DNA from: Dehalococcoidia bacterium
Lineage (GTDB): Bacteria > Chloroflexota > Dehalococcoidia > Lucifugimonadales > UBA3495
Assembly (NCBI GenBank): GCA_965232815.1
Contig: OZ247427.1
Location: 98,447 to 162,446, forward strand
Reading direction: 5' to 3'
DNA: 64,000 bases
The translations under genes and the position numbers were made by a program. How positions within the stretch are numbered: the first letter of the stretch is position 1; each line of letters begins with the position of its first letter. Positions 12,937 to 22,380 of the stretch are shown here, in pieces. The notes below the pieces were generated by a model, which saw only the letters and a program-made list of their open reading frames with translations, made no database searches and was not told where the DNA came from.

Positions 12937-15822
12937 ATGACCCAGGCATCCGTCTTCGGTGGTACTCGGCTCGACCCTTTCGAGCACGAGTTTGTCTGCA
13001 TCGACCTCGAGACCACCGGCCTCAACGCCAACTCCGACACCATCATTGAGTTGGGAGCCGTCCGTTTTAGAGGCGGCGAAATCCTTGATCGCTACCAGTC
13101 CTTCGTCAACCCTGGTCGCAGGATTCCCCCGTTCATTCAGCAACTCACTTCCATCAGCCAGGCACAGATCGAACGCGCACCCACCTTCAATCAGGTCGCT
13201 GACCAGTTCGCAGATTTCATCGGCGATCTGCCCATCGTCGGCCACAACGTCGCTTTCGACATCGGTTTTTTGCGGTCCCATCATCTCCCGCTCGCCAACC
13301 GCAATTACAACACGTGGGATCTGGCCTCCATATTCCTGCCCACCCTCCCTGAGTACAACCTGGCGGCATTGGCCACCCGCCTTGGCCTTGACCACAGTCA
13401 GGCCCACCGCGCCAGCGCAGATGCCGAGATCACTGCGTTGGTGTTCCATCGCTTGCTGACCATCGCCAGCGGACACCCTGCCGCCAAGGTCGCCTACATC
13501 GCCCGCGCGGCCCGCGCAGCCAACGCCTCCGTCGCCGACCTGTTGGAGGGACTGATACCCCACGCGTCAGGCGCCAACGCCGCCTTGTCGGACTCCGCGA
13601 ACGGGAACGCATCGGGTGCCCCGAGCTTGTCCGGCGTGCGCTTGGAACACCTCGCGGAACAGTCGCCAGCCAATCAGGTCGACGGATCGCCCAGCGCTGT
13701 CATCCGCCAACCCCTCACCGAGCGGCAGATCGAGGGCTTGCTGGACACCGACGGTATATTCGCCAAATCATTCCCCAATTTCGAGACCCGGCCCGAGCAG
13801 GCCGAGATGCTCAAGGCCGTCACCCGCGCGATTTTCCAGGGCCGCAAACTGATCGTCGAGGGCGGCACCGGAATCGGCAAGAGCATCGCCTATTTGCTCC
13901 CCGCCGTTATGTACGCCGCCGCCACCGGCCAGCGCGTCGTGGTGTCCACCAACACCATCAACCTCCAGGAACAGTTGATGGAGAAGGATATCCCGGAGGT
14001 GCGGCGGATCCTCGAAGAGGCCGGCATCCTCGAGCCCGGAGCCTTCCGCGCCGCCCAACTCAAGGGACGCTCCAACTACGTCTGCTTGCACCGCTGGAAT
14101 AACCTCGGCAACTCCGATTCAATCAACGAAGACGAGGCCCGGGTCATCGGCAAGACTGCGGTTTGGCTCGACGAGACGAAGACCGGCGACCGCACTAGCC
14201 TCAACCTCAACATGCAGGATTGGACCGCTTGGTCCCGCATCTGCGCCGACGCCATGGAGGGTTGTCCCGCATTTCGCGGCGGTGCGCCATGTTTCTTGCG
14301 TCAGGCCCGCAACCAGGCCGAGTCAGCGCACATCCTGGTCATCAACCACGCCCTGCTCCTCGCCGATCTCGCGGTCGGCGGCACTGTCCTCCAGGACTAC
14401 CAGCGCCTCATCGTCGACGAAGCTCACCACCTGGAGGAGGAAGCCAGTAGGCAGATGGGTTTCGAAATCGCTGCCAACACCCTGACCCAGGAACTGGAAG
14501 GCGTATATCGCATCATCAACCACCTGAACGCCGCCGCGGCCCGGCTGGGCGATACCCTCGAAGCGCCCCGCGCCAGGGAATCGGTCAGTGCCGCGTCCGC
14601 CGCCTGCAATCAGGCCGGCCAGGCTTGGCAAACACTCTGGGAAACCGTCGACGAACTGTATCGTAATTCCAACCGCTCCTCCGACAGCGGGCGACCCGAT
14701 AACGACCGTCAACCTTTGACTCTTGACGCCACTGTTCGGCAATCCCGCCCTTGGAGTTCTGCGTCCATCGAATGGGAATCCGTTTCCGCGTTCATGCACG
14801 AGAGCGTCACCGCCCTGTCTGCTTTGCAACGCACCGTGGCTGATGGATTATTCCATTTGGCCGACGACAGCCCGGCCGCCGAACTGGGTGGCGCGGTGGA
14901 GGTTCTCACCGACATCAACACCAATCTGGCATCCATATTCGGCCGTCATGAGGACGATCGCATCCAGTGGCTCGACTATGTCCGACGCAACTTGACCCTG
15001 CACTCCGTTCCCATAGATGTGGGCCCCATCCTCGCCGAACAACTTTTCGCCGTTAAGGAGTCCGTCGTGCTGACTGGCTCTACACTGTCCACCGACGGGA
15101 ATTTCGAGTTCCTCCGTCAACAAGTAGGGTTCCCTGAAGACTCCGACGAGTTGTTGGTGGGTAGCCCGTTCAACTATTCCCGCAACACCTTGATCTTGGT
15201 GCCCGACGACCTTCCCGACCCGCGTCGTGGAGCTGAACACGCCCGTGGGACCGCTCAAGTGATCATGAACATGGCCCAGGCATTGGACGGTCATTTGCTA
15301 GCCCTGTTCACATCGCATAGCGCGTTGCGGCAAGCTTCGTTTGAGGTGCGCGGCCCGTTGCGCGCCGCCGGTATCACTTTGTTGGCCCAAGGCATTGATG
15401 GGACTCCCCGTCAACTTCAGCAACGCATGCGGGAGAACCCAGAGTCAGTCCTACTGGGTACGGCTTCCTTCTGGACTGGTGTGGATCTCCCATCCGGGGT
15501 CCTCAGAGGGTTGTTGATTTGTCGGCTGCCTTTTCCGGTACCCACCGACCCCGTAATCAAGGTTCGTGGCAATCTACGGAACAACCCATTTAACGAACTC
15601 CAAATCCCTCACGCTATGATACGGTTCCGACAAGGTTTTGGTCGCCTAATCCGGCGCAGGAGCGACCGGGGCGCAGTCGTAATCCTAGACCGTCGCATCC
15701 ACACCGCCAACTACGGCGACCGTTTCTTAAACGCTCTACCGCCCTGCACGTTCCAGGCATCCAGCGTATCCAACGTGGGCCGACAGGCTGCCCAGTGGCT
15801 CGGCCTCACCCGTACCGCCTGA
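12937..15822 (+). CDS. dinG: bifunctional DEDD 3'-5' exonuclease / DinG-family (XPD-like) ATP-dependent DNA helicase
   Basis: 961 aa. Exonuclease motifs FVCIDLETTGLN, VGHNVAFDIGFL and HRASADA. Helicase Walker A EGGTGIGKS and DEAH box VDEAHHLEE. A Cys cluster (C..C..C..C) lies between them, as in Fe-S helicases. Confidence 0.85.
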   Translation: MTQASVFGGTRLDPFEHEFVCIDLETTGLNANSDTIIELGAVRFRGGEILDRYQSFVNPGRRIPPFIQQLTSISQAQIERAPTFNQVADQFADFIGDLPIVGHNVAFDIGFLRSHHLPLANRNYNTWDLASIFLPTLPEYNLAALATRLGLDHSQAHRASADAEITALVFHRLLTIASGHPAAKVAYIARAARAANASVADLLEGLIPHASGANAALSDSANGNASGAPSLSGVRLEHLAEQSPANQVDGSPSAVIRQPLTERQIEGLLDTDGIFAKSFPNFETRPEQAEMLKAVTRAIFQGRKLIVEGGTGIGKSIAYLLPAVMYAAATGQRVVVSTNTINLQEQLMEKDIPEVRRILEEAGILEPGAFRAAQLKGRSNYVCLHRWNNLGNSDSINEDEARVIGKTAVWLDETKTGDRTSLNLNMQDWTAWSRICADAMEGCPAFRGGAPCFLRQARNQAESAHILVINHALLLADLAVGGTVLQDYQRLIVDEAHHLEEEASRQMGFEIAANTLTQELEGVYRIINHLNAAAARLGDTLEAPRARESVSAASAACNQAGQAWQTLWETVDELYRNSNRSSDSGRPDNDRQPLTLDATVRQSRPWSSASIEWESVSAFMHESVTALSALQRTVADGLFHLADDSPAAELGGAVEVLTDINTNLASIFGRHEDDRIQWLDYVRRNLTLHSVPIDVGPILAEQLFAVKESVVLTGSTLSTDGNFEFLRQQVGFPEDSDELLVGSPFNYSRNTLILVPDDLPDPRRGAEHARGTAQVIMNMAQALDGHLLALFTSHSALRQASFEVRGPLRAAGITLLAQGIDGTPRQLQQRMRENPESVLLGTASFWTGVDLPSGVLRGLLICRLPFPVPTDPVIKVRGNLRNNPFNELQIPHAMIRFRQGFGRLIRRRSDRGAVVILDRRIHTANYGDRFLNALPPCTFQASSVSNVGRQAAQWLGLTRTA

Positions 15823-15825
15823 CCC

Positions 15826-16683
15826 GTGCACCTGGAGATCAACCAGCCTTTCGACCTCGCTGAAAGCTTGGAGAGCGGTCAGGCGCATCGTTGGCGTCGT
15901 TTGGCTGATGGGTGGTACTCCGGCGTACTCGGCGACCGCTTGCTCCACCTGCGCCAGGTACCCAACGGGCTGGAATACCGCGAAACTTCCGTTGGCAGCC
16001 GCCCCGCCGAGGGCGAAACCGACGTCCTCCTCCGGGCCTATTTTCGCCTTGATGACGATATCGCCAAAATCTACCAGGATATCTGCCGCGACCGCCGAGT
16101 TGCCGCGATGGTGGCCAGGTACCCCGGCCTGCGCATCCTCCGCCAGGAACCCTGGGAATGCACCGTCGCATTCATCTGTTCGGCGACCTCCAACATCCCC
16201 CGTATCCATCAGAACATGGAGTCCATGGCCGACCATCTGGGACAACCGTTGGAGCTTGACGGTGAGGTCCGCCGCACGTTTCCGTCGGCCCTGCAATTGG
16301 CAAAGGCCGGCGAAAGCGCCCTTCGCGATCTCGGATTGGGTTTCCGTGCGCCCTACGTGATCTCAGCCGCCCACCAGGTCGCTGATGGCGCCCTCGACCT
16401 CGATGAGTTGATCCGCCTACCGTATCCCGAAACCAAGGCGCGCCTCATGGATTGCTACGGCATAGGCGCAAAGATTGCGGATTGCATAGCGGTATTCTCG
16501 CTCGAAAAACTAGAGGCATTCCCCGTGGACGTGTGGGTCCGGCGTGCCCTCGCGGAATGGTATTTCCCGATGCAAAAAAAGCCCCCCGATCGCGCGATGG
16601 TCGATTGGGCCCAATCATACTTCGGGCGATACGCAGGCTATTCGCAGCAATACCTGTTCCACGGTCGCCGAATGCAGAAATGA
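15826..16683 (+). CDS. ogg: 8-oxoguanine DNA glycosylase/AP lyase, OGG1-type (HhH-GPD)
   Basis: GTG start 3 nt after the dinG stop. HhH-GPD motif CYGIGAKIADCIAVFSL followed by FPVDVWVRR (Lys/Asp catalytic pair pattern of OGG1). Confidence 0.75.
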   Translation: MHLEINQPFDLAESLESGQAHRWRRLADGWYSGVLGDRLLHLRQVPNGLEYRETSVGSRPAEGETDVLLRAYFRLDDDIAKIYQDICRDRRVAAMVARYPGLRILRQEPWECTVAFICSATSNIPRIHQNMESMADHLGQPLELDGEVRRTFPSALQLAKAGESALRDLGLGFRAPYVISAAHQVADGALDLDELIRLPYPETKARLMDCYGIGAKIADCIAVFSLEKLEAFPVDVWVRRALAEWYFPMQKKPPDRAMVDWAQSYFGRYAGYSQQYLFHGRRMQK

Positions 16684-16700
16684 GCGCGGGCCAAAAATAA

Positions 16701-16723
16701 GGGGGCGAATTTGATTCGCCCCC
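16701..16723. repeat. REP-like GC hairpin, family GGGGCGAAT-N3/4-ATTCGCCCC (copy 1); likely bidirectional terminator
   Basis: GGGGGCGAAT-TTG-ATTCGCCCCC lies between the convergent ogg and fmdB-like genes. Confidence 0.7.
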
Positions 16724-16747
16724 TGCAGCTTCCAATCGGATGTTGGA

Positions 16748-16987
16748 TCAGTGCCCGCACCCGCAGGCTCCGCCACAGCCGCCGCCCATGGGCATCGGCA
16801 TCGGCGATCCACCCAGATCCGCCATATCACTGGCGAACCCGTCACCCTTGCTCACCGCAGCGAACACCGAGATGGCGCGCTTGGCCGGCTGCTCGCAGTG
16901 CGGGCAATCGGCCCCGCTGGCGGACATGGACTGCAATTTTTCAAACTTGTGCCCACAGGTCGGACACGAGTACTCATAGATCGGCAT
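16748..16987 (-). CDS. FmdB-family CxxC-CxxC zinc-ribbon protein
   Basis: MPIYEYSCPTCGHKFE...CPHCEQP with a Gly/Cys-rich tail GGGCGGACGCGH. ATG at 16987 preceded by GGGAGCG. Confidence 0.75.
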   Translation of the reverse strand: MPIYEYSCPTCGHKFEKLQSMSASGADCPHCEQPAKRAISVFAAVSKGDGFASDMADLGGSPMPMPMGGGCGGACGCGH

Positions 16988-17343
16988 GGTAATCGCTCCC
17001 AAAGTCGGATGATATTCAGGACTATACCCCCCGTATGCGAAAAGCGTCAAGCCGGCGTGTCGCCTAACGAGAGTGTTTCAATCACTTGCACACGCCCACG
17101 TAGCCGGCCCATGGTGAACCACTCGAACCACGTGCGGACGGTTTTTTCAGAAACCTTCTGCCCTGCATATTTTCTCGGTTCCGAGACAATCGCGAAACCC
17201 TGGTGATCTCACGCGAACCAAACTCTGTAGCTACTGACATGGCATGCCGCACGGTCCTAGGGTCGACCCATGGATCGCCCGCCTTCGGCCTCACCAATTG
17301 ATCCACCGATCCCCGACATCACCGCCAAAACCCTGCTCACCTC

Positions 17344-17373: not shown

Positions 17374-17390
17374 CGATATGCCGTATCAAC

Positions 17391-17858
17391 ATGGTCGCCG
17401 CAACTCAAAAACACTCGGGACACCATCACCCGCGTCCCCGCTCCGCCGCCGTCGTCGATGATATCGTCGAGCGCTTGGTAGCCATGGGATATCGCGATAC
17501 CGAACCCCGCCGCCTCGTGATCGGTGCCGTTGCTGCCCATGACCGGCCTTTTACCGCCGAGGACCTCTGCACCGCTCTCCCATGCGTGGGTCGGGCCACC
17601 GTGTTTCGCGGACTCCGCCTGCTCGTCGAAACCGACCAGGTCTGCCGCGTCCTCTTGGAAGACCGCGAACTTCGGTACCAACTTAGCCACCAGGGACACC
17701 ACCACCATATGCTCTGTGCCGTTTGCGGCGCCTCTGCCGACCTGGCGAACTGCGATGTTGCGGAAACCCTGCGAGCCGCCGCGACCGCCGCCGGTTTTCA
17801 GATGAGTGGCCACTGGTTGGAGGTTTACGGGCGCTGCGTCTCGTGCGCTGCGGCTTGA
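17391..17858 (+). CDS. zur: Fur-family metalloregulator, probably Zur
   Basis: 155 aa. Winged-helix region RATVFRGLRLLVE, then HQGHHHHMLCAVCG and RCVSC (CxxC..CxxC). Sits directly upstream of the zinc-type ABC genes. Confidence 0.75.
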   Translation: MVAATQKHSGHHHPRPRSAAVVDDIVERLVAMGYRDTEPRRLVIGAVAAHDRPFTAEDLCTALPCVGRATVFRGLRLLVETDQVCRVLLEDRELRYQLSHQGHHHHMLCAVCGASADLANCDVAETLRAAATAAGFQMSGHWLEVYGRCVSCAAA

Positions 17859-17917
17859 TGGCATAACCCATCACTGGCCGCGCGACTCCCATCCTTTTTT
17901 ATTTTTCCAGTCTTTAT

Positions 17918-17932
17918 TGATACCCAATATCA
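17918..17932. promoter_or_regulatory. Fur/Zur-box-like palindrome 1
   Basis: TGATA-CCCAA-TATCA in the AT-rich zur-znuA spacer. Confidence 0.45.
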
Positions 17933-17975
17933 TATTTGATTGGAATTGAGACCGTATCTCATTAACTCCAATGTT

Positions 17976-17992
17976 TTGATACCAAATATCAA
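17976..17992. promoter_or_regulatory. Fur/Zur-box-like palindrome 2
   Basis: Perfect TTGATA-CCAAA-TATCAA, 66 nt upstream of the znuA-like ATG. A third TTGATACCC half-site lies at 18006-18014. Confidence 0.5.
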
Positions 17993-18057: not shown

Positions 18058-20421
18058 ATGAACCACACCAAATCCCTTCGTATGTCCAGGATCACCCAGT
18101 GCGTATGCGCACGCCGCGGCCTGCTAACGCTGGCTGCAATAGCATTGCTCATGTCTGCACTATTTTTGACTGCCTGCGGCGACGACGAACCTGCGTTCCC
18201 TCCCGCTGATTCGACCGCCGCCGCAGGTTCAGATACGTCCTCGAGTCCAGCCCAAGCCTCCACATCCTCGGATCCTGCGCCGACCCCTGCCACTCCACAG
18301 TCCTCGGCTTCTTCGTCGGGTTCTTCGTCGTCTGCGAGCGCCGCAGAGCCCGTTGAGCCCATCAAAGTGGTTGCCAGCAATGCCGTCTTGGCCGATTTGG
18401 TATCCAACGTCGGCGGCGACCGCGTGTCCGTCGATGTCCTGGTGCCCGCTGGCGCTGACGCTCATACTTGGAGCAGCACCCCCCAGGACAGCGTTCGAAT
18501 TGCCAACGCCAGCCTCATTGTCAGCAATGGCGCGGGTTTGTCTGCCCAGGTCGACGCCCTGATCGACAACGCCGCGTCCGCAGACGCATTCCACGTAGTC
18601 GCCTCAGACGGCCTCGAACCCCAGGAACTGGTGGAATTGCCATTCCCCGAGGAGGACCACCACGGGGAACAAGACCACATGGCGGACGCTGAGCATCACG
18701 AAGAAGTCGCTGGTCGGCTCCTGGTCGGCGACGGCGAGGGATCGGGTCTATCCGTCATCGATCTGGAGTCCGGCGAAGTACACCAGGACGAGTTCGACCT
18801 CGGCTCTCGCGCCGGCCGAATTTACTCCACCGCATCCGGCCGCTTTGCCATCGCCGTTTCCTCCGACGCCAACGCCGTCCACCTGTTCGACGGGGGCATA
18901 TACCTAGAGGAGCATGGCGACCACTTCGACCTGGTCGAAACCCACGTCCATCGACTCGATGCAAACTTGGGCGGCGACCGTCCGGTCCACCTGTACGTTG
19001 GCGGCGAGTGGGCGACCGTGTTCTACGATGATTCCGGCGACATCGCGCTGATCAACGAGCATGAATTGGAACACGAAGGCGATGCTTGGGTTCCCGTGAT
19101 GATGAACGCCGGCGCTCAACACGGCGCGGCAATCCCTCTGGAAGGTGACCTGTTTGCCGTCTCTCTCCAACACCCTGATTTCCTTCAAAACCCGGAAGAC
19201 TACAGACTGCCCATCGGCGCGGAAATCCGAGACCTGGACGGACAGGTGCTGCATCGGGCTGAGGGTTGCCCCGACCTCCACGGCGATGCCGGAAACGGTC
19301 ACGCGGCGGCCTTTGGTTGCACCGGAGGCGTCCTCGTCGTCGAAGCCCACGACGGCGATTACGACCACGCATTCATTCCGGGGCCACCCGGCTCCCCCGA
19401 CGACTTCCGCCTGACCTCCGTTTTTGGCTATGACGGACTCGACCATTTCTTCGCGTTGGGCTCTGCCGTCGGCCTCTACCTGGTAGAACCGGAATCCGGT
19501 GAAATGGAACAGTTCATTCCTGCTACGGACTCCCTGAGGCCAATCCAGGTGGCATTCAGTTACGATGGCGAGTTACTGTTGGTCTTGATGTCCGACGGCG
19601 AGCTGCGTTCGTATGACGCGCATGACGGAGATCTCCTGGAGTCCGCGTCTGGATTCTTGTCAGCCGACCTGGACCCCGGATTCTGGGCCCGGCCTCATAT
19701 CGCCACCGCTCCCGGCCACATCTATATCACCGACTCCGCGGCCGGCGAAGTTCTTGCGTTGGATGCCGATCACCTGGAGGTGGTCGACCACTGGGACGTG
19801 GATGGCAAGCCCACCAAAATCGCGTTCGTCGGCATCCTGGGAGACGGAGATCACCCCGAGGAAGGCCACGACGACCACGGCAGCGAAAGCGACGACCATG
19901 GACACGACCATGGTGAGGGCGACCCGCATTTCTGGCTCAACCCCCGCATGGTTGTCCATTACGTCAACCAGATCGCCAACGGCCTCGTCGCCGCAGATCC
20001 TGACAATGCCGGTGTGTACCTGGACAACGCCGCCGCTTACATCGAAAAGTTGGAGGCGCTGGACGCGTATATTGCCGACTCCCTTGCCGGCATCTCCCAC
20101 GAGCGTCGTGTGATAGTCACGTTCCACGATGCGTTCGGATACTTTGGTAGCCGCTACGACTTCGAGGTCATGGCTTTCGTCGGCACCCACGCCGGTGAAG
20201 TTTCTCCGGACGACATTTCCAGGGTGATCGACTTGGTCGATGACCAGGGTTTGCAGGGTGTTTTCGCGGAACCCCAGTTTTCCGCCGACGCGTTGGAACA
20301 GGTCGCCCGGGACTCCGGCATCGGTATCGGAATCCTGCGCTCGCTGCCCGACGCCACCCACGGCGACTACATCAGCATGATGCGGGCAAACGCCGACGCC
20401 CTGGCCGGCTTGCTCAACTGA
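18058..20421 (+). CDS. znuA: ZnuA/TroA-type metal-binding lipoprotein with a large module inserted in the His-rich loop
   Basis: 787 aa with AGGAGA RBS. Lipobox LFLTAC followed by a Ser/Pro/Ala tether. ZnuA motifs DAHTW, DPHFWLNP, TFHDAFGYF and FAEPQF. His/Asp-rich runs at aa 198-216 and 598-624 bracket approx 380 aa of propeller-like repeats. Confidence 0.75.
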   Translation: MNHTKSLRMSRITQCVCARRGLLTLAAIALLMSALFLTACGDDEPAFPPADSTAAAGSDTSSSPAQASTSSDPAPTPATPQSSASSSGSSSSASAAEPVEPIKVVASNAVLADLVSNVGGDRVSVDVLVPAGADAHTWSSTPQDSVRIANASLIVSNGAGLSAQVDALIDNAASADAFHVVASDGLEPQELVELPFPEEDHHGEQDHMADAEHHEEVAGRLLVGDGEGSGLSVIDLESGEVHQDEFDLGSRAGRIYSTASGRFAIAVSSDANAVHLFDGGIYLEEHGDHFDLVETHVHRLDANLGGDRPVHLYVGGEWATVFYDDSGDIALINEHELEHEGDAWVPVMMNAGAQHGAAIPLEGDLFAVSLQHPDFLQNPEDYRLPIGAEIRDLDGQVLHRAEGCPDLHGDAGNGHAAAFGCTGGVLVVEAHDGDYDHAFIPGPPGSPDDFRLTSVFGYDGLDHFFALGSAVGLYLVEPESGEMEQFIPATDSLRPIQVAFSYDGELLLVLMSDGELRSYDAHDGDLLESASGFLSADLDPGFWARPHIATAPGHIYITDSAAGEVLALDADHLEVVDHWDVDGKPTKIAFVGILGDGDHPEEGHDDHGSESDDHGHDHGEGDPHFWLNPRMVVHYVNQIANGLVAADPDNAGVYLDNAAAYIEKLEALDAYIADSLAGISHERRVIVTFHDAFGYFGSRYDFEVMAFVGTHAGEVSPDDISRVIDLVDDQGLQGVFAEPQFSADALEQVARDSGIGIGILRSLPDATHGDYISMMRANADALAGLLN

Positions 20422-20470: not shown

Positions 20471-20506
20471 GTGTCCGGTCAACCGACAGTAACCAATGTC
20501 ACTATC

Positions 20507-21376
20507 ATGATCGATTTGATCGTAGAACCCATGCAGTACGGGTTTATGCAGCGAGCGTTGCTGGTGTCCGCCCTCGCAGCCACCGCCTGTGGAGTCGTCG
20601 GCACGTTTGTCGTGTTGCGCGGTATGGCCTTCATGGGCGACGCCATCGCCCATTCCGCGCTTACCGGCATGGCCATTGCATTCCTGGTTGGCGTCAACGT
20701 GACCCTGGGTGCCCTGGCGTGGGCCGTGCCGGCATCCCTGGGCATCACATTCGTGTCCCGCCGGACCGGCATCCGGCTGGACGCGATTATCGGGGTCCTC
20801 TTCGCCGGCGGGTTCGCGTTGGGAGTAATATTGATCAACGTCTCCGCAAATTACGCCGGCGATCTGCTCGGCATCCTGTTCGGCAACGTCCTGGGAGCCT
20901 CATGGCTCGACGTGCTGACGGTCGGTTGCCTCGCGGGCGGAGTGATAATCGTGGTGGGACTGCTTTACAAAGAATTGGTCTTCATGACCTACGACGCCTC
21001 GGTCGCGGAAGCGTCCGGGATTCCGGTACGGTTCTTGGAATATCTGCTCCCGCTCCTGGTGGCCCTCACCACGGTGGCTTCGCTGCAAACTGTCGGGAAC
21101 GTCATGGTCATGTCGCTATTGGTGGTTCCAGCCGTCACCGGGAGCATGTTGGCTCGCCGGCTCGCCAGCATGATGCTGGCTACGGTTGGAGTTGCCCTCA
21201 CCGCCATCGTAATCGGCCTGTACCTTTCATTCCACGCCAACCTCCCCACCGGACCAGCCATCGTCGTCGTATCGGTGGCGCAATTGCTCGTGGTGGTAGC
21301 GGTCTCTCCGAGACGTTTGTCCCTGTTGGCACGGTGGCGTCGCCGCACCGGCAGCGCCGAACGCGCCGCCGACTGA
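20507..21376 (+). CDS. znuB: metal (Zn/Mn-type) ABC transporter permease
   Basis: MIDLIVEPMQYGFMQRALLVSALAA..GMAFMGDAIAHSALTG is the typical ZnuB/ABC-3 N-terminus. Multi-TM. The ORF-track GTG at 20471 abuts the terminator. Confidence 0.8.
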   Translation: MIDLIVEPMQYGFMQRALLVSALAATACGVVGTFVVLRGMAFMGDAIAHSALTGMAIAFLVGVNVTLGALAWAVPASLGITFVSRRTGIRLDAIIGVLFAGGFALGVILINVSANYAGDLLGILFGNVLGASWLDVLTVGCLAGGVIIVVGLLYKELVFMTYDASVAEASGIPVRFLEYLLPLLVALTTVASLQTVGNVMVMSLLVVPAVTGSMLARRLASMMLATVGVALTAIVIGLYLSFHANLPTGPAIVVVSVAQLLVVVAVSPRRLSLLARWRRRTGSAERAAD

Positions 21377-21384
21377 ACCGTGGC

Positions 21385-22380
21385 ATGGCAACTGGCTGCG
21401 ACCGCACATCGCCGGACCCAACCTGGTACCGCCGACGAAGCGTCAGGCGCCAGTTGCTGGCCTTGGCCGCAATTTGCTCTTTCCCGATCGTTCTTCTTGC
21501 CTGCACGCCGAATCCGTCCATGCCGGATTCGCATTCTGGGCAATTCGTCGGGAGCTACGAAGAGGTCATTGAGCTACCTGGACCTGTCGAAGCAGGTTTT
21601 TCGGACTCCGACTTCGATCAGTTGCTGCGGCCGGACGATATTCCCCCTGTCTATTCGCCAATGTTCGTACCCGCCTCCGAAGCCGACCTGCCGGACGACG
21701 AATTGGTGATCGGGCTGGCCATCGGAGACGACACCCGCGCTTATCCGGCGGGCATCCTGTTCGCCAGGGAGATGGTCAACGACGTGGTGGGGGGTGTCCC
21801 CGTCCTCGTCAGTTGGTGCCCCAGGTGCTACACGGCGCTGGTGCATGATCGACGCGCAGACGGCAGCGTTTCAGTTTTTGGCAACCAGGGCGCACTATAT
21901 AAAGGAGCGATGACCTGGTTCGACCACGACACTGGCAGCATATGGTCCCAGCCGTTGGGAGCAGCATTGGCCGGACCCAGGGCCGGTGCCACCCTACCGT
22001 TGATCCCGTCGCAACTTACCACCTGGAGCGACTGGTCTGCATCGCATCCCCGAACCAGCGTGTTGGTCGTCGACGAACCGTCCCAGCCGTTTCGTGGACG
22101 CCGACCCGGCCCCGACCATGTGGTCGGCGTCGTCGTCGGAAATATGGCCGTGGCACTACCTTACGACGAAATTCTGCCCGCCATGCCACATGAGATCAAA
22201 GTAGGGGACATCAGTGTCACGGTGTGGCGCGACGCCCATTCCGACGCTATACAAGCCACGCAACTGCACGAATCGGGCAACCCACGCCGGGAAATCCCAG
22301 TGCTGATCGCATACCGGTCTGCCTGGCTCAAATTCTATCCGGATAGCCTGATCGACCCAACCCGGGAGCCCAATCGGTGA
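21385..22380 (+). CDS. DUF3179-domain lipoprotein
   Basis: ATG 8 nt after the znuB stop. Lipobox-like IVLLAC. LVIGLAIGDDTRAYP and VLVSWCPRCYT are hallmark DUF3179 motifs. The upstream two-thirds of the 642-aa track ORF is a shadow frame over znuB. Confidence 0.65.
   Translation: MATGCDRTSPDPTWYRRRSVRRQLLALAAICSFPIVLLACTPNPSMPDSHSGQFVGSYEEVIELPGPVEAGFSDSDFDQLLRPDDIPPVYSPMFVPASEADLPDDELVIGLAIGDDTRAYPAGILFAREMVNDVVGGVPVLVSWCPRCYTALVHDRRADGSVSVFGNQGALYKGAMTWFDHDTGSIWSQPLGAALAGPRAGATLPLIPSQLTTWSDWSASHPRTSVLVVDEPSQPFRGRRPGPDHVVGVVVGNMAVALPYDEILPAMPHEIKVGDISVTVWRDAHSDAIQATQLHESGNPRREIPVLIAYRSAWLKFYPDSLIDPTREPNR

Follow-up and report, generated by a model that had tools for sequence, protein, structure and literature searches.

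An open reading frame of an uncultured Dehalococcoidia bacterium (Chloroflexota), at positions 18058-20421 (+) of the 64-kb stretch of DNA analysed here, which will be referred to as the window, codes for a 787-aa lipoprotein in which a cluster A-I metal-binding protein is split by an inserted domain. The locus raises the question of what kind of domain has been placed there and what it does for the binding protein. The two halves of a single ZnuA/AztC-like protein (aa 99-196 and 622-787) are separated by about 380 aa (aa 217-594), with a His/Asp/Glu-rich linker on either side.

The protein starts with a signal peptide (18058-18177, +) containing a predicted helix (aa 12-38) and ending in the lipobox motif LTAC with Cys40; across the family, residues A39, C40 and G41 show a conservation of at least 90%. 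A low-complexity, Ser/Ala/Pro/Thr-rich tether predicted to be disordered (aa 41-98; 18178-18351, +; pLDDT <50) leads to the N-terminal lobe (aa 99-196; 18352-18645, +), which carries the metal ligand His136 in the motif DAHTW, aligns to residues 2-91 of the PdAztC chain and was modelled by AlphaFold with a pLDDT of about 82-98. Linker 1 (aa 197-216; 18646-18705, +; PEEDHHGEQDHMADAEHHEE) contains 5 His and 9 Asp/Glu among its 20 residues, and linker 2 (aa 595-621; 19840-19920, +; GDGDHPEEGHDDHGSESDDHGHDHGEG) 6 His and 11 Asp/Glu among 27, both with pLDDT <50. The C-terminal part (aa 622-787; 19921-20421, +) aligns to PdAztC chain residues 109-283 and comprises ligand His624 (DPHFW), an inter-lobe helix (aa 629-676), ligand His690 (TFHDAF) and the C-lobe. 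A previous sequence-only reading had singled out positions 18649-19929, corresponding to aa 198-624; the motifs which it quoted were all located in the protein (DAHTW at 134-138, DPHFW at 622-626, TFHDAF at 688-693 and AEPQF at 737-741), as were its two His/Asp/Glu-rich runs. Linker 2 carries, family-wide and directly before the DPH ligand motif, H616, which is invariant among 72 sequences, and H618, which is at least 90% conserved in the same set. A His/acid-rich linker of 15-43 aa was found in all 40 fused proteins examined.

The ZnuA-type lipoprotein proposed in that reading was borne out by the two halves. Pfam ZnuA (PF01297) matches in two stretches with E 5e-75 and 252.7 bits versus a cutoff of 29. 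By definition, cluster A-I proteins consist of two alpha/beta lobes with a long rigid helix between them (PMC7731109), and AlphaFold predicted two lobes and a long helix, modelled as helices 629-646 and 648-676. Together, the lobes of the model superpose in Foldseek on holo AztC (5w57) with a TM score of 0.77 normalised to the target, and none of the metal ligands H136, H624 and H690 varies among 72 sequences. AztC was the top NCBIfam model for the lobes and also the top PDB sequence match (5kzj/5w56); the score of the AztC equivalog NF040870 was 196.7 bits, which is under its curated cutoff of 350. The fourth AztC ligand, Asp279 (LYSDAL), is absent, as the SDAL segment corresponds to a deletion in the 787-aa protein in the phmmer alignment. 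No conserved Asp was seen in the aligned Asp279 region of fused groups B and C; the Anaerolineae-type fused group does have LYTDALG at this segment.

According to the alignment, the insertion falls on the D-loop of AztC, a short, flexible segment beside the metal-binding cleft that contains three His and is needed for docking of AztD. The insertion takes the place of PdAztC residues ~115-131, the D-loop being residues 117-133, so that the D-loop position is filled by the new domain with His-rich remnants on its flanks. This agrees with the earlier placement of the insertion inside a His-rich acceptor loop.

The inserted domain (aa 217-594; 18706-19839, +) is of the AztD type. The NCBIfam AztD model NF038015 matched it end to end (profile positions 3-354 of 356, E 6e-38 to 6e-39), with 130.5-133.7 bits compared to a curated cutoff of 400; such a match lies well outside chance. 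Since both modules stay under their NCBIfam equivalog cutoffs, they are divergent family members and should not be called orthologues of their Paracoccus counterparts. The PDB matches to the insert were likewise AztD (6ck1, E 2.9e-29; 6cmk, E 1.3e-27), with an identity to AztD structures of about 25-28%. The ~380-aa beta-propeller suspected from the sequence alone was also recovered in the AlphaFold model, in which the domain has a pLDDT >90 and matches the beta-propeller with eight blades seen in AztD crystals: the top nine Foldseek matches were all AztD (6cmk, 6n01, 6ck1) with E 1e-28 to 3e-26, TM scores of 0.82-0.84 normalised to the target and 383-391 aligned columns. No Pfam family matched the insert above threshold. 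Generic WD40, YVTN or PQQ propellers were considered and rejected, as they gave only sub-threshold Pfam scores (ANAPC4_WD40, 18.7-21.4 bits versus 22.9) and the specific match was to AztD.

The published AztD ligands all map to residues conserved in 39-72 fused homologues. At site 2, H286, G287, H289 and D291 align to AztD His99, Gly100, His102 and Asp104; all four are retained in 100% of 39 fused proteins. The C-terminal site-2 ligand of AztD, His408, is conserved in 68% of AztD homologues; its equivalent in the fused protein is probably H599 as judged by the alignment, a position occupied by His in 8 of 9 group A, 7 of 7 group B and 17 of 23 group C sequences. Site 1 is represented by H311, H355 and H408 of the fused protein, which align to AztD His124, His167 and His218, and the AztD disulfide Cys214-Cys231 by C404-C421. 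The sole exception to site-1 conservation among the fused proteins compared is a natural variant, L061, in which all three site-1 His are lost and site 2 and the binding-protein site are kept. Taken together, profile, structure and ligand comparisons identify the insert as homologous over its full length to AztD, the zinc metallochaperone. The sequence-only reading had considered an AztD- or ZinT-like chaperone; the AztD half of this proposal stood, whereas the ZinT half did not, as the Pfam ZinT model PF09223 found no match in the 787-aa protein.

With metagenomic contigs, chimeric assembly, or a sequencing error fusing the frames of neighbouring aztC- and aztD-like genes, has to be considered a priori, and this is all that speaks for such an artefact. 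A domain situated between two lobes of one fold cannot arise from an end-to-end fusion of genes. Full-length homologues number in the hundreds in Chloroflexota (Dehalococcoidia/SAR202 and Anaerolineae), and the architecture is kept at full coverage in more than 120 database clusters with 66-96% identity, including megabase-scale assemblies. The three-part architecture was present in 76 of 80 genome loci, 70 of which are intact single ORFs, and the GC content runs without a break across both junctions. An architecture found in so many clusters at full coverage excludes mis-assembly without read mapping, and we consider the artefact refuted.

All of the homologues bear nothing more than the label "zinc ABC transporter substrate-binding protein". 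The sequence-only reading had not recognised the architecture as a described one; in the searchable literature, we found no description of an AztD/AztC- or ZnuA-type propeller fusion, and a 2019 survey of AztD counted 2 Chloroflexi sequences without remarking on a fusion. The protein itself is common rather than rare in Chloroflexota databases, under its generic name. Sister architectures also occur in Chloroflexota which carry ZinT, ZinT plus AztD, or two AztD domains in the same loop, bear the same generic annotation and, as far as found in the literature searched, are without description. The fused proteins compared and these sister architectures have their insertion at the same place, after the N-lobe and before the DPH ligand motif. 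The histories of propeller and lobes are discordant. Cassettes appear to have been swapped among binding proteins with no more than ~35% identity to each other, and one propeller clade extends across phyla; in host proteins of this clade other than substrate-binding proteins, the flanks gave no Pfam or PDB match.

The gene is part of a Fur-family/binding-protein/permease operon, with a conserved palindromic operator predicted upstream. First in the cluster is a Fur-family metalloregulator gene and candidate Zur (17391-17858, +), matched by Pfam FUR (PF01475) with E 2e-17 and 63.8 bits versus a cutoff of 23.1; the NCBIfam Fur, PerR and Zur models were all under cutoff, the Zur equivalog scoring 27.6 bits versus 167. 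A Fur gene adjoins the fused gene in 9 of 9 group A and 6 of 7 group B loci. Operator-like palindrome 1 (17917-17933, TTGATACCCAATATCAT, TGATA-N5-TATCA) overlaps the -10 element of the sole promoter-like site (17904-17933), and palindrome 2 (17976-17992, TTGATACCAAATATCAA) is part of the binding-protein gene's 5' leader. Two matches to TGATA-N5-TATCA were observed compared to 0.10 expected, and in related loci 17 of 39 fused genes have the same palindrome close to their start (23 matches in 577 kb). A copy with one mismatch (CGATA-N5-TATCA, 17374-17388) lies just 5' of the Fur-family start codon, and autoregulation of this gene might be possible. Downstream of the binding-protein gene follow an AztB/ZnuB-like permease of the ABC-3 family (20471-21376, +; Pfam ABC-3, E 7e-67; top NCBIfam match AztB, 209.8 bits, under the cutoff of 280) and, as last gene, a DUF3179 lipoprotein (21385-22380, +, start approximate; Pfam DUF3179, E 6e-49; lipobox VLLAC). 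Permease and DUF3179 genes are syntenic in the related locus L081, and 3 of 9 group A loci contain the DUF3179 gene. The genes for binding protein, ATPase and permease adjoin one another in groups B and C; a search for Walker A and LSGG motifs detected no ABC ATPase gene in the whole window.

The imported metal might be Mn, Fe, Co or Ni, with the propeller repurposed accordingly. Cluster A-I includes Mn and Fe binders, the MntC, EfaA and SloC models of NCBIfam also match the lobes, and the adjacent regulator can be assigned to the Fur family only. However, the all-His coordination by H136, H624 and H690 and the His-rich loops are described hallmarks of zinc specificity, the top family and structure matches are AztC and AztD, and the full set of AztD zinc ligands is kept. 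In addition, the corresponding loop of sister architectures is occupied by ZinT, which is likewise specific for zinc. We therefore regard a non-zinc metal as very unlikely.

AlphaFold was run twice, with input alignments of 54 and 72 sequences. The larger alignment raised the mean pLDDT from 77 to 83.5 but brought no improvement in pTM (0.52 and 0.55), and the result was two confident modules without a confident relative pose; a fixed inter-domain pose was therefore rejected. The sequence-only reading had expected a two-lobe ZnuA fold with a propeller of 7-8 blades, and both modules were predicted. With the low pTM and the pLDDT <50 of both linkers, the proximity of site 2 to the binding site is inferred from topology and not from the model. 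In the Paracoccus system, zinc reaches AztC solely from AztD site 2, which is built by the N- and C-terminal strands and the blade-2 hairpin; the D-loop is essential for the transfer, and AztC traps the metal kinetically (PMC6689063, PMC7463823). As site 2 consists of the terminal strands of the propeller together with this hairpin, the linkers should tether it next to the three-His site. In the published docking model, the AztC D-loop threads the propeller pore, which is not possible in this form once the propeller itself occupies the place of the loop.

We consider it probable that the 787-aa product is held at the cell surface by a lipid anchor and serves a zinc ABC importer as its substrate-binding protein, and that the AztD-type propeller inserted in place of the D-loop hands zinc over intramolecularly; intramolecular capture and hand-off of zinc is the most likely function predicted for the fused protein. 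The propeller would have been acquired by a domain insertion displacing the flexible D-loop near the metal cleft. Scarce Zn(II) would be captured by both His/Asp/Glu-rich linkers and by the exposed site 2 (H286/H289/D291 and probably H599), which the two linkers would hold beside the three-His site H136/H624/H690, and would then move within one polypeptide to this kinetically trapping site. The zinc-loaded protein would dock on the ABC-3 permease encoded by the neighbouring gene, and the Fur-family (Zur-like) protein encoded alongside would probably act as repressor via the TGATA-N5-TATCA palindromes. Being fused, chaperone and receptor may stay together on a cell surface that has no closed periplasm, comparable to AdcA, the ZnuA-ZinT fusion of streptococci.

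Alternatively, the propeller could serve as a zinc store, buffer, sensor or allosteric modulator without direct hand-off to the three-His site. Apart from the variant mentioned above, pore site 1 is strictly conserved, storage or affinity tuning has been suggested as its role in Paracoccus, AztD was described as a periplasmic zinc reservoir, and a fixed interface between the modules was not predicted by AlphaFold. On the other hand, it is site 2, the only transfer-competent site of PdAztD, that is kept without exception, whereas site 1 can vanish, and the insertion is invariably at the transfer-required loop, although a mere store could sit anywhere, for example at a terminus. These observations argue for the hand-off, and we judge a role without it to be unlikely. 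Several points nevertheless speak against the hand-off as the main reading: in Paracoccus, loss of aztD resulted only in mild phenotypes, both modules score under their curated cutoffs, the fourth AztC ligand is missing by alignment, the window has no ABC ATPase gene, the regulator cannot be assigned to Zur over another Fur-family type, the relative pose of the modules is of low confidence, and the threaded docking pose does not apply in its published form.

Extracytoplasmic transfer of zinc from protein to protein is mechanistically understood in very few systems, and the AztD-AztC transfer complex is transient and known from a docking model only. The fused protein represents a natural covalent form of this partnership and, following a "Rosetta-stone" argument, points to the loop, together with the propeller end that carries site 2, as the functional interface; at the same time, it challenges the requirement that the D-loop thread the propeller pore. 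We see an even chance that the loop in Chloroflexota is a socket for plug-in metallochaperones exchanged as cassettes, with the fusions as covalent AztD-AztC transfer complexes. If so, evolution would supply, through the fusions, an independent line of support for a hand-off interface made of site 2 and the D-loop. They also offer a stable construct for crystallography, cryo-EM, SAXS and kinetics of the transfer complex. SAR202/Dehalococcoidia and Anaerolineae, in which the fusion is widespread, are abundant ocean, sediment and sponge-associated lineages, and this wide spread suggests an adaptation for scavenging traces of zinc at a surface that is not enclosed by a periplasm. In terms of annotation, a chaperone domain is unrecognised in hundreds of database entries.

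Among known systems, AztABCD of Paracoccus denitrificans (PMC6689063, PMC7463823), with a separate AztC and a periplasmic AztD, contains the same two families and shares the site 1 and site 2 ligands, the disulfide, the three-His core, an adjoining AztB-like permease and likely Fur/Zur-type regulation. There, the interaction element is the AztC D-loop, whereas here a single polypeptide carries AztD in place of the D-loop with His-rich linkers on both sides, is a lipoprotein on a long tether, lacks the Asp279-type fourth ligand by alignment, is encoded in an operon without an ATPase gene and has diverged in both parts. ZnuA, which in Gram-negative bacteria works with free ZinT, resembles the fused protein in its three-His coordination without an Asp ligand and in a flexible His/Asp/Glu-rich loop directly before the H-x-W ligand motif that is implicated in chaperone contact; in our protein, however, this loop is divided into two linkers by a folded 380-aa domain, and the chaperone belongs to another family. 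The Chloroflexota sister architectures differ in the other or extra modules in their loop (ZinT, ZinT+AztD, 2xAztD). AdcA of streptococci, with a ZnuA-like domain and a C-terminal ZinT domain (PMC7858048; cited in PMC6689063), is likewise a surface lipoprotein that joins a cluster A-I protein covalently to a zinc-recruiting accessory module, but in the Dehalococcoidia protein this module is an AztD propeller instead of a ZinT lipocalin and is situated inside the loop instead of at the C-terminus.

The fused gene on the plus strand (18058-20421) is a single ORF encoding 787 amino acids, in which the span 18649-19929 highlighted by the sequence-only reading corresponds to aa 198-624. The ZnuA-type lipoprotein split in two that this reading described was recovered: a lipobox (LTAC) ends in Cys40, and the Pfam ZnuA match (PF01297) is divided into two stretches with 252.7 bits versus a gathering score of 29, which by sequence makes the fused protein a Pfam ZnuA member. 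Every motif quoted earlier was located in the ORF (DAHTW at 134-138, DPHFW at 622-626, TFHDAF at 688-693 and AEPQF at 737-741), as were both His/Asp/Glu-rich runs bracketing the insert (aa 197-216 and aa 595-621). The lobes best fit NCBIfam AztC with 196.7 bits, below the curated equivalog cutoff of 350. No break in GC content was observed over the insert junctions.

The proposed propeller was identified by the NCBIfam AztD model (NF038015), which matched aa 225-591 of the full protein (E 6e-38) and, with the excised insert, nearly the full profile (positions 3-354 of 356, E 6e-39), the score of ~132 bits being under the curated equivalog cutoff of 400. Using phmmer against PDB sequences, significant E-values were obtained only for AztD crystal structures, with end-to-end alignments of the insert to Paracoccus denitrificans AztD (PdAztD; 6ck1, E 2.9e-29) and Citrobacter koseri AztD (6cmk/6n01, E 1.3e-27); YncE (3vgz) was a marginal third match (E 0.0017). 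AlphaFold2 was run twice, with 54 and 72 aligned homologues. As the sequence-only reading expected, a propeller (pLDDT >90) and two SBP lobes were confidently predicted, and Foldseek placed AztD chains nearest, with nine as the top matches (E 1e-28 to 3e-26, target-normalised TM 0.82-0.84) followed by holo AztC (5w57) across both lobes (TM 0.77). Disorder was predicted for the N-terminal tether (aa 41-98) and the two His-rich linkers each time, and additionally for the tip of the site-2 hairpin (285-289) in the first run. Neither run yielded a confident relative pose of propeller and lobes (pTM 0.52 and 0.55). Judged by homology, predicted fold and ligands, the insert is a member of the AztD family.

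The N-lobe pairs with chain residues 2-91 of P. denitrificans AztC (PdAztC), and the alignment picks up again at chain residue 109. Applying a chain-to-residue offset of 23, anchored on PdAztC His138 and His204, the segment replaced by the insert is approximately residues 115-131. The D-loop of AztC comprises residues 117-133 (PMC7463823); thus, by alignment, the propeller is spliced into the SBP acceptor loop as had been suggested, and the chaperone occupies the very loop that a separate chaperone needs. In AztD, the two terminal strands (N and C) of the propeller join the blade-2 hairpin to form site 2 (PMC6689063, PMC7463823), and AztD termini are known to bear His-rich tracts. As the domain is inserted via both termini, we infer from topology that site 2 must stay tethered and is held next to the SBP cleft.

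Zinc ligands were mapped by counting positions along the phmmer alignment to PdAztD and matching them to the ligand list of PMC6689063. Site 2 (PdAztD H99/G100/H102/D104) corresponds to H286/G287/H289/D291, with its C-terminal His (H408) probably at H599; site 1 (H124, H167, H218) corresponds to H311, H355 and H408, and the disulfide C214-C231 to C404-C421. Three divergent groups contributed 39 fused homologues, all of which (100%) share H286/G287/H289/D291 and the two cysteines; 32 of them have His at the H599 position. Of the 39, only the fused paralogue L061:7887-10190 has lost site 1 (N, N, Q in place of the three His); its site 2, disulfide and SBP ligands are all kept, making it a natural 'delta-S1' variant. 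Site 2 alone is enough for zinc transfer by AztD (PMC6689063, PMC7463823), and the sequence of this paralogue agrees with that finding. The SBP ligands H136, H624 and H690 are invariant in 72 sequences. By alignment, the group of the window protein has a deletion at Asp279 (in LYSDAL), the fourth ligand of AztC, so the fused SBP site combines a ZnuA-like set of three His with an AztC-like scaffold.

Searching with the full protein retrieved 579 homologues at E <= 1e-10, the best 120 of which show 66-96% identity over 87-100% of the query with lengths of 695-815 aa; those that bear a name are annotated just as zinc ABC transporter substrate-binding protein. A scan of species-representative genomes yielded 80 loci; the same three-part architecture was found in 76, at 31-75% identity and all in Dehalococcoidia, SAR202 or Chloroflexota MAGs. 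Seventy of these are intact single ORFs and six are interrupted or cut by a contig end; several genomes carry two fused paralogues. These loci and the near full-length best homologues rule out an assembly artefact. An exhaustive HMMER search with the insert detected 752 AztD-like cluster representatives (E <= 0.001); among the top 150, the order N-lobe/AztD/C-lobe was seen in 14. A profile built from the remotest fused representatives picked up 186 proteins, with this order in 88 of the 113 examined, including named examples from Aggregatilineales, Anaerolineales and Anaerolineae. Among records with an organism name, the fused architecture, as read from sequence, spans at least two Chloroflexota classes. 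The fusion is real and of ordinary abundance but unrecognised in annotation.

In Poribacteria, the genome scan revealed the classical split arrangement of separate SBP and AztD genes. The propeller gene lies ~1.6 kb downstream of an ordinary SBP gene (loci L078:7836-10196, L079 and L080; protein P0263), and the separate propeller bears a C-terminal FlgD_ig/Por_Secre_tail (type IX secretion sorting) domain. At another locus, an unfused SBP gene (L062:10484-11956) directly downstream of a fused one has its lobe matches separated by ~105 aa, which points to an extended loop or a further small insert.

The same loop accommodates other modules. ZinT alone occupies it in Chloroflexota relatives of ~514-554 aa (P0375, P0378, P0381), and ZinT (PF09223) is combined with AztD in relatives of ~890-940 aa (P0166, P0285, P0307 and others) in the order N-lobe, ZinT, AztD, C-lobe. 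In P0374, P0376, P0382 and P0387 (719-741 aa), ZinT and a non-AztD stretch fill a ~430-aa inter-lobe gap, and in one SBP, P0124/P0271 (1216 aa), it holds a tandem pair of AztD propellers. Five to six tandem propellers without ZnuA lobes were seen in P0146 (2432 aa).

Fused homologues were grouped by the identity of N-lobe, insert and C-lobe, respectively, to the window protein: group A, the window family (67-100%, 73-98%, 69-99%); group B, including L037-L042 and L075 (33-45%, 62-75%, 34-37%); group C (32-36%, 38-41%, 33-37%); and the Anaerolineae-type group D (33-45%, 26-31%, 30-39%). In L037-L042 and L075, the propeller is 67-71% identical to that of the window, compared to 33-41% for the two lobes. 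Because N-lobe, insert and C-lobe have diverged at comparable rates within group A, the ~70% identical propeller on ~35% identical lobes in group B implies replacement or exchange of the module between divergent SBPs. The propeller clade of the window (66-72% identity) also occurs in large proteins without ZnuA lobes, in ORFs of ~930-1170 aa (L044:5880-9398, L045:7275-10067, L046:6855-10205, L047:6954-10124) from Pedosphaera, Binatia and Thermodesulfobacteriota MAGs. Pfam matched the flanks of none of these four, and P0121, a representative 1094-aa homologue, had no PDB match outside the propeller.

The cluster, entirely on the plus strand, starts with a Fur-family regulator gene (17391-17858), for which no NCBIfam equivalog model fits. 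An ABC-3 permease gene (20471-21376) lies 3' of the fused gene, and the last gene (~21385-22380) encodes a DUF3179 lipoprotein that has a lipobox (VLLAC) as well as a CPRC motif and may possibly play a part in zinc handling. A 74%-identical relative (L081) has the same gene order, with the DUF3179 gene syntenic; the DUF3179 gene is present in three of nine group A loci. The window yielded no ABC ATPase gene; at one group B locus and seven group C loci, ATPase and permease genes come directly after the fused gene. The region separating the regulator gene from the SBP gene contains two 17-bp palindromes (17917-17933 and 17976-17992) with the core TGATA-N5-TATCA, compared to 0.1 expected, the first overlapping the -10 of the sole promoter-like site. 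In 577 kb of related loci, 23 exact copies of the core were counted. The palindrome is conserved upstream of fused genes in groups A, B and C, all three from Dehalococcoidia, and 17 of 39 fused genes have the core close to their start; tandem fused paralogues (L049, L052, L068) each have their own copy, and a one-mismatch copy lies just ahead of the regulator start codon. Palindromes next to a Fur-family gene are the picture expected for a Zur-type repressor, making them a candidate Zur box of this lineage. The upstream genes (12937-17050), encoding a DinG-like helicase/exonuclease fusion, an OGG-type DNA glycosylase and a small zinc-ribbon protein (16748-17050, minus strand), have the same order in L081 and probably have no connection with the zinc genes.

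The analysis showed the architecture, ligand set, insertion site, disordered His-rich linkers, lipoprotein signal and the link to transporter and regulator genes. In the proposed mechanism, linkers and propeller site 2 would capture zinc, which would then be handed intramolecularly to the three-His SBP site acting as a kinetic trap, and the zinc-loaded SBP would deliver it to the permease. The fusion might serve to co-localise chaperone and SBP on a cell surface without a closed periplasm. The loop-through-pore detail of the published AztD-AztC docking model cannot fit the fusion in its original form. No account of an SBP loop carrying an inserted AztD or ZinT domain turned up in the searchable literature; a 2019 AztD survey contained two Chloroflexi sequences, passed over without comment. 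By analogy, the fused protein may work like the AztC and AztD pair. Streptococcal AdcA (PMC7858048) consists of ZnuA with a C-terminal ZinT, which is free in Gram-negative bacteria, and the fused protein would appear to follow the same logic of an SBP covalently joined to an accessory zinc module.
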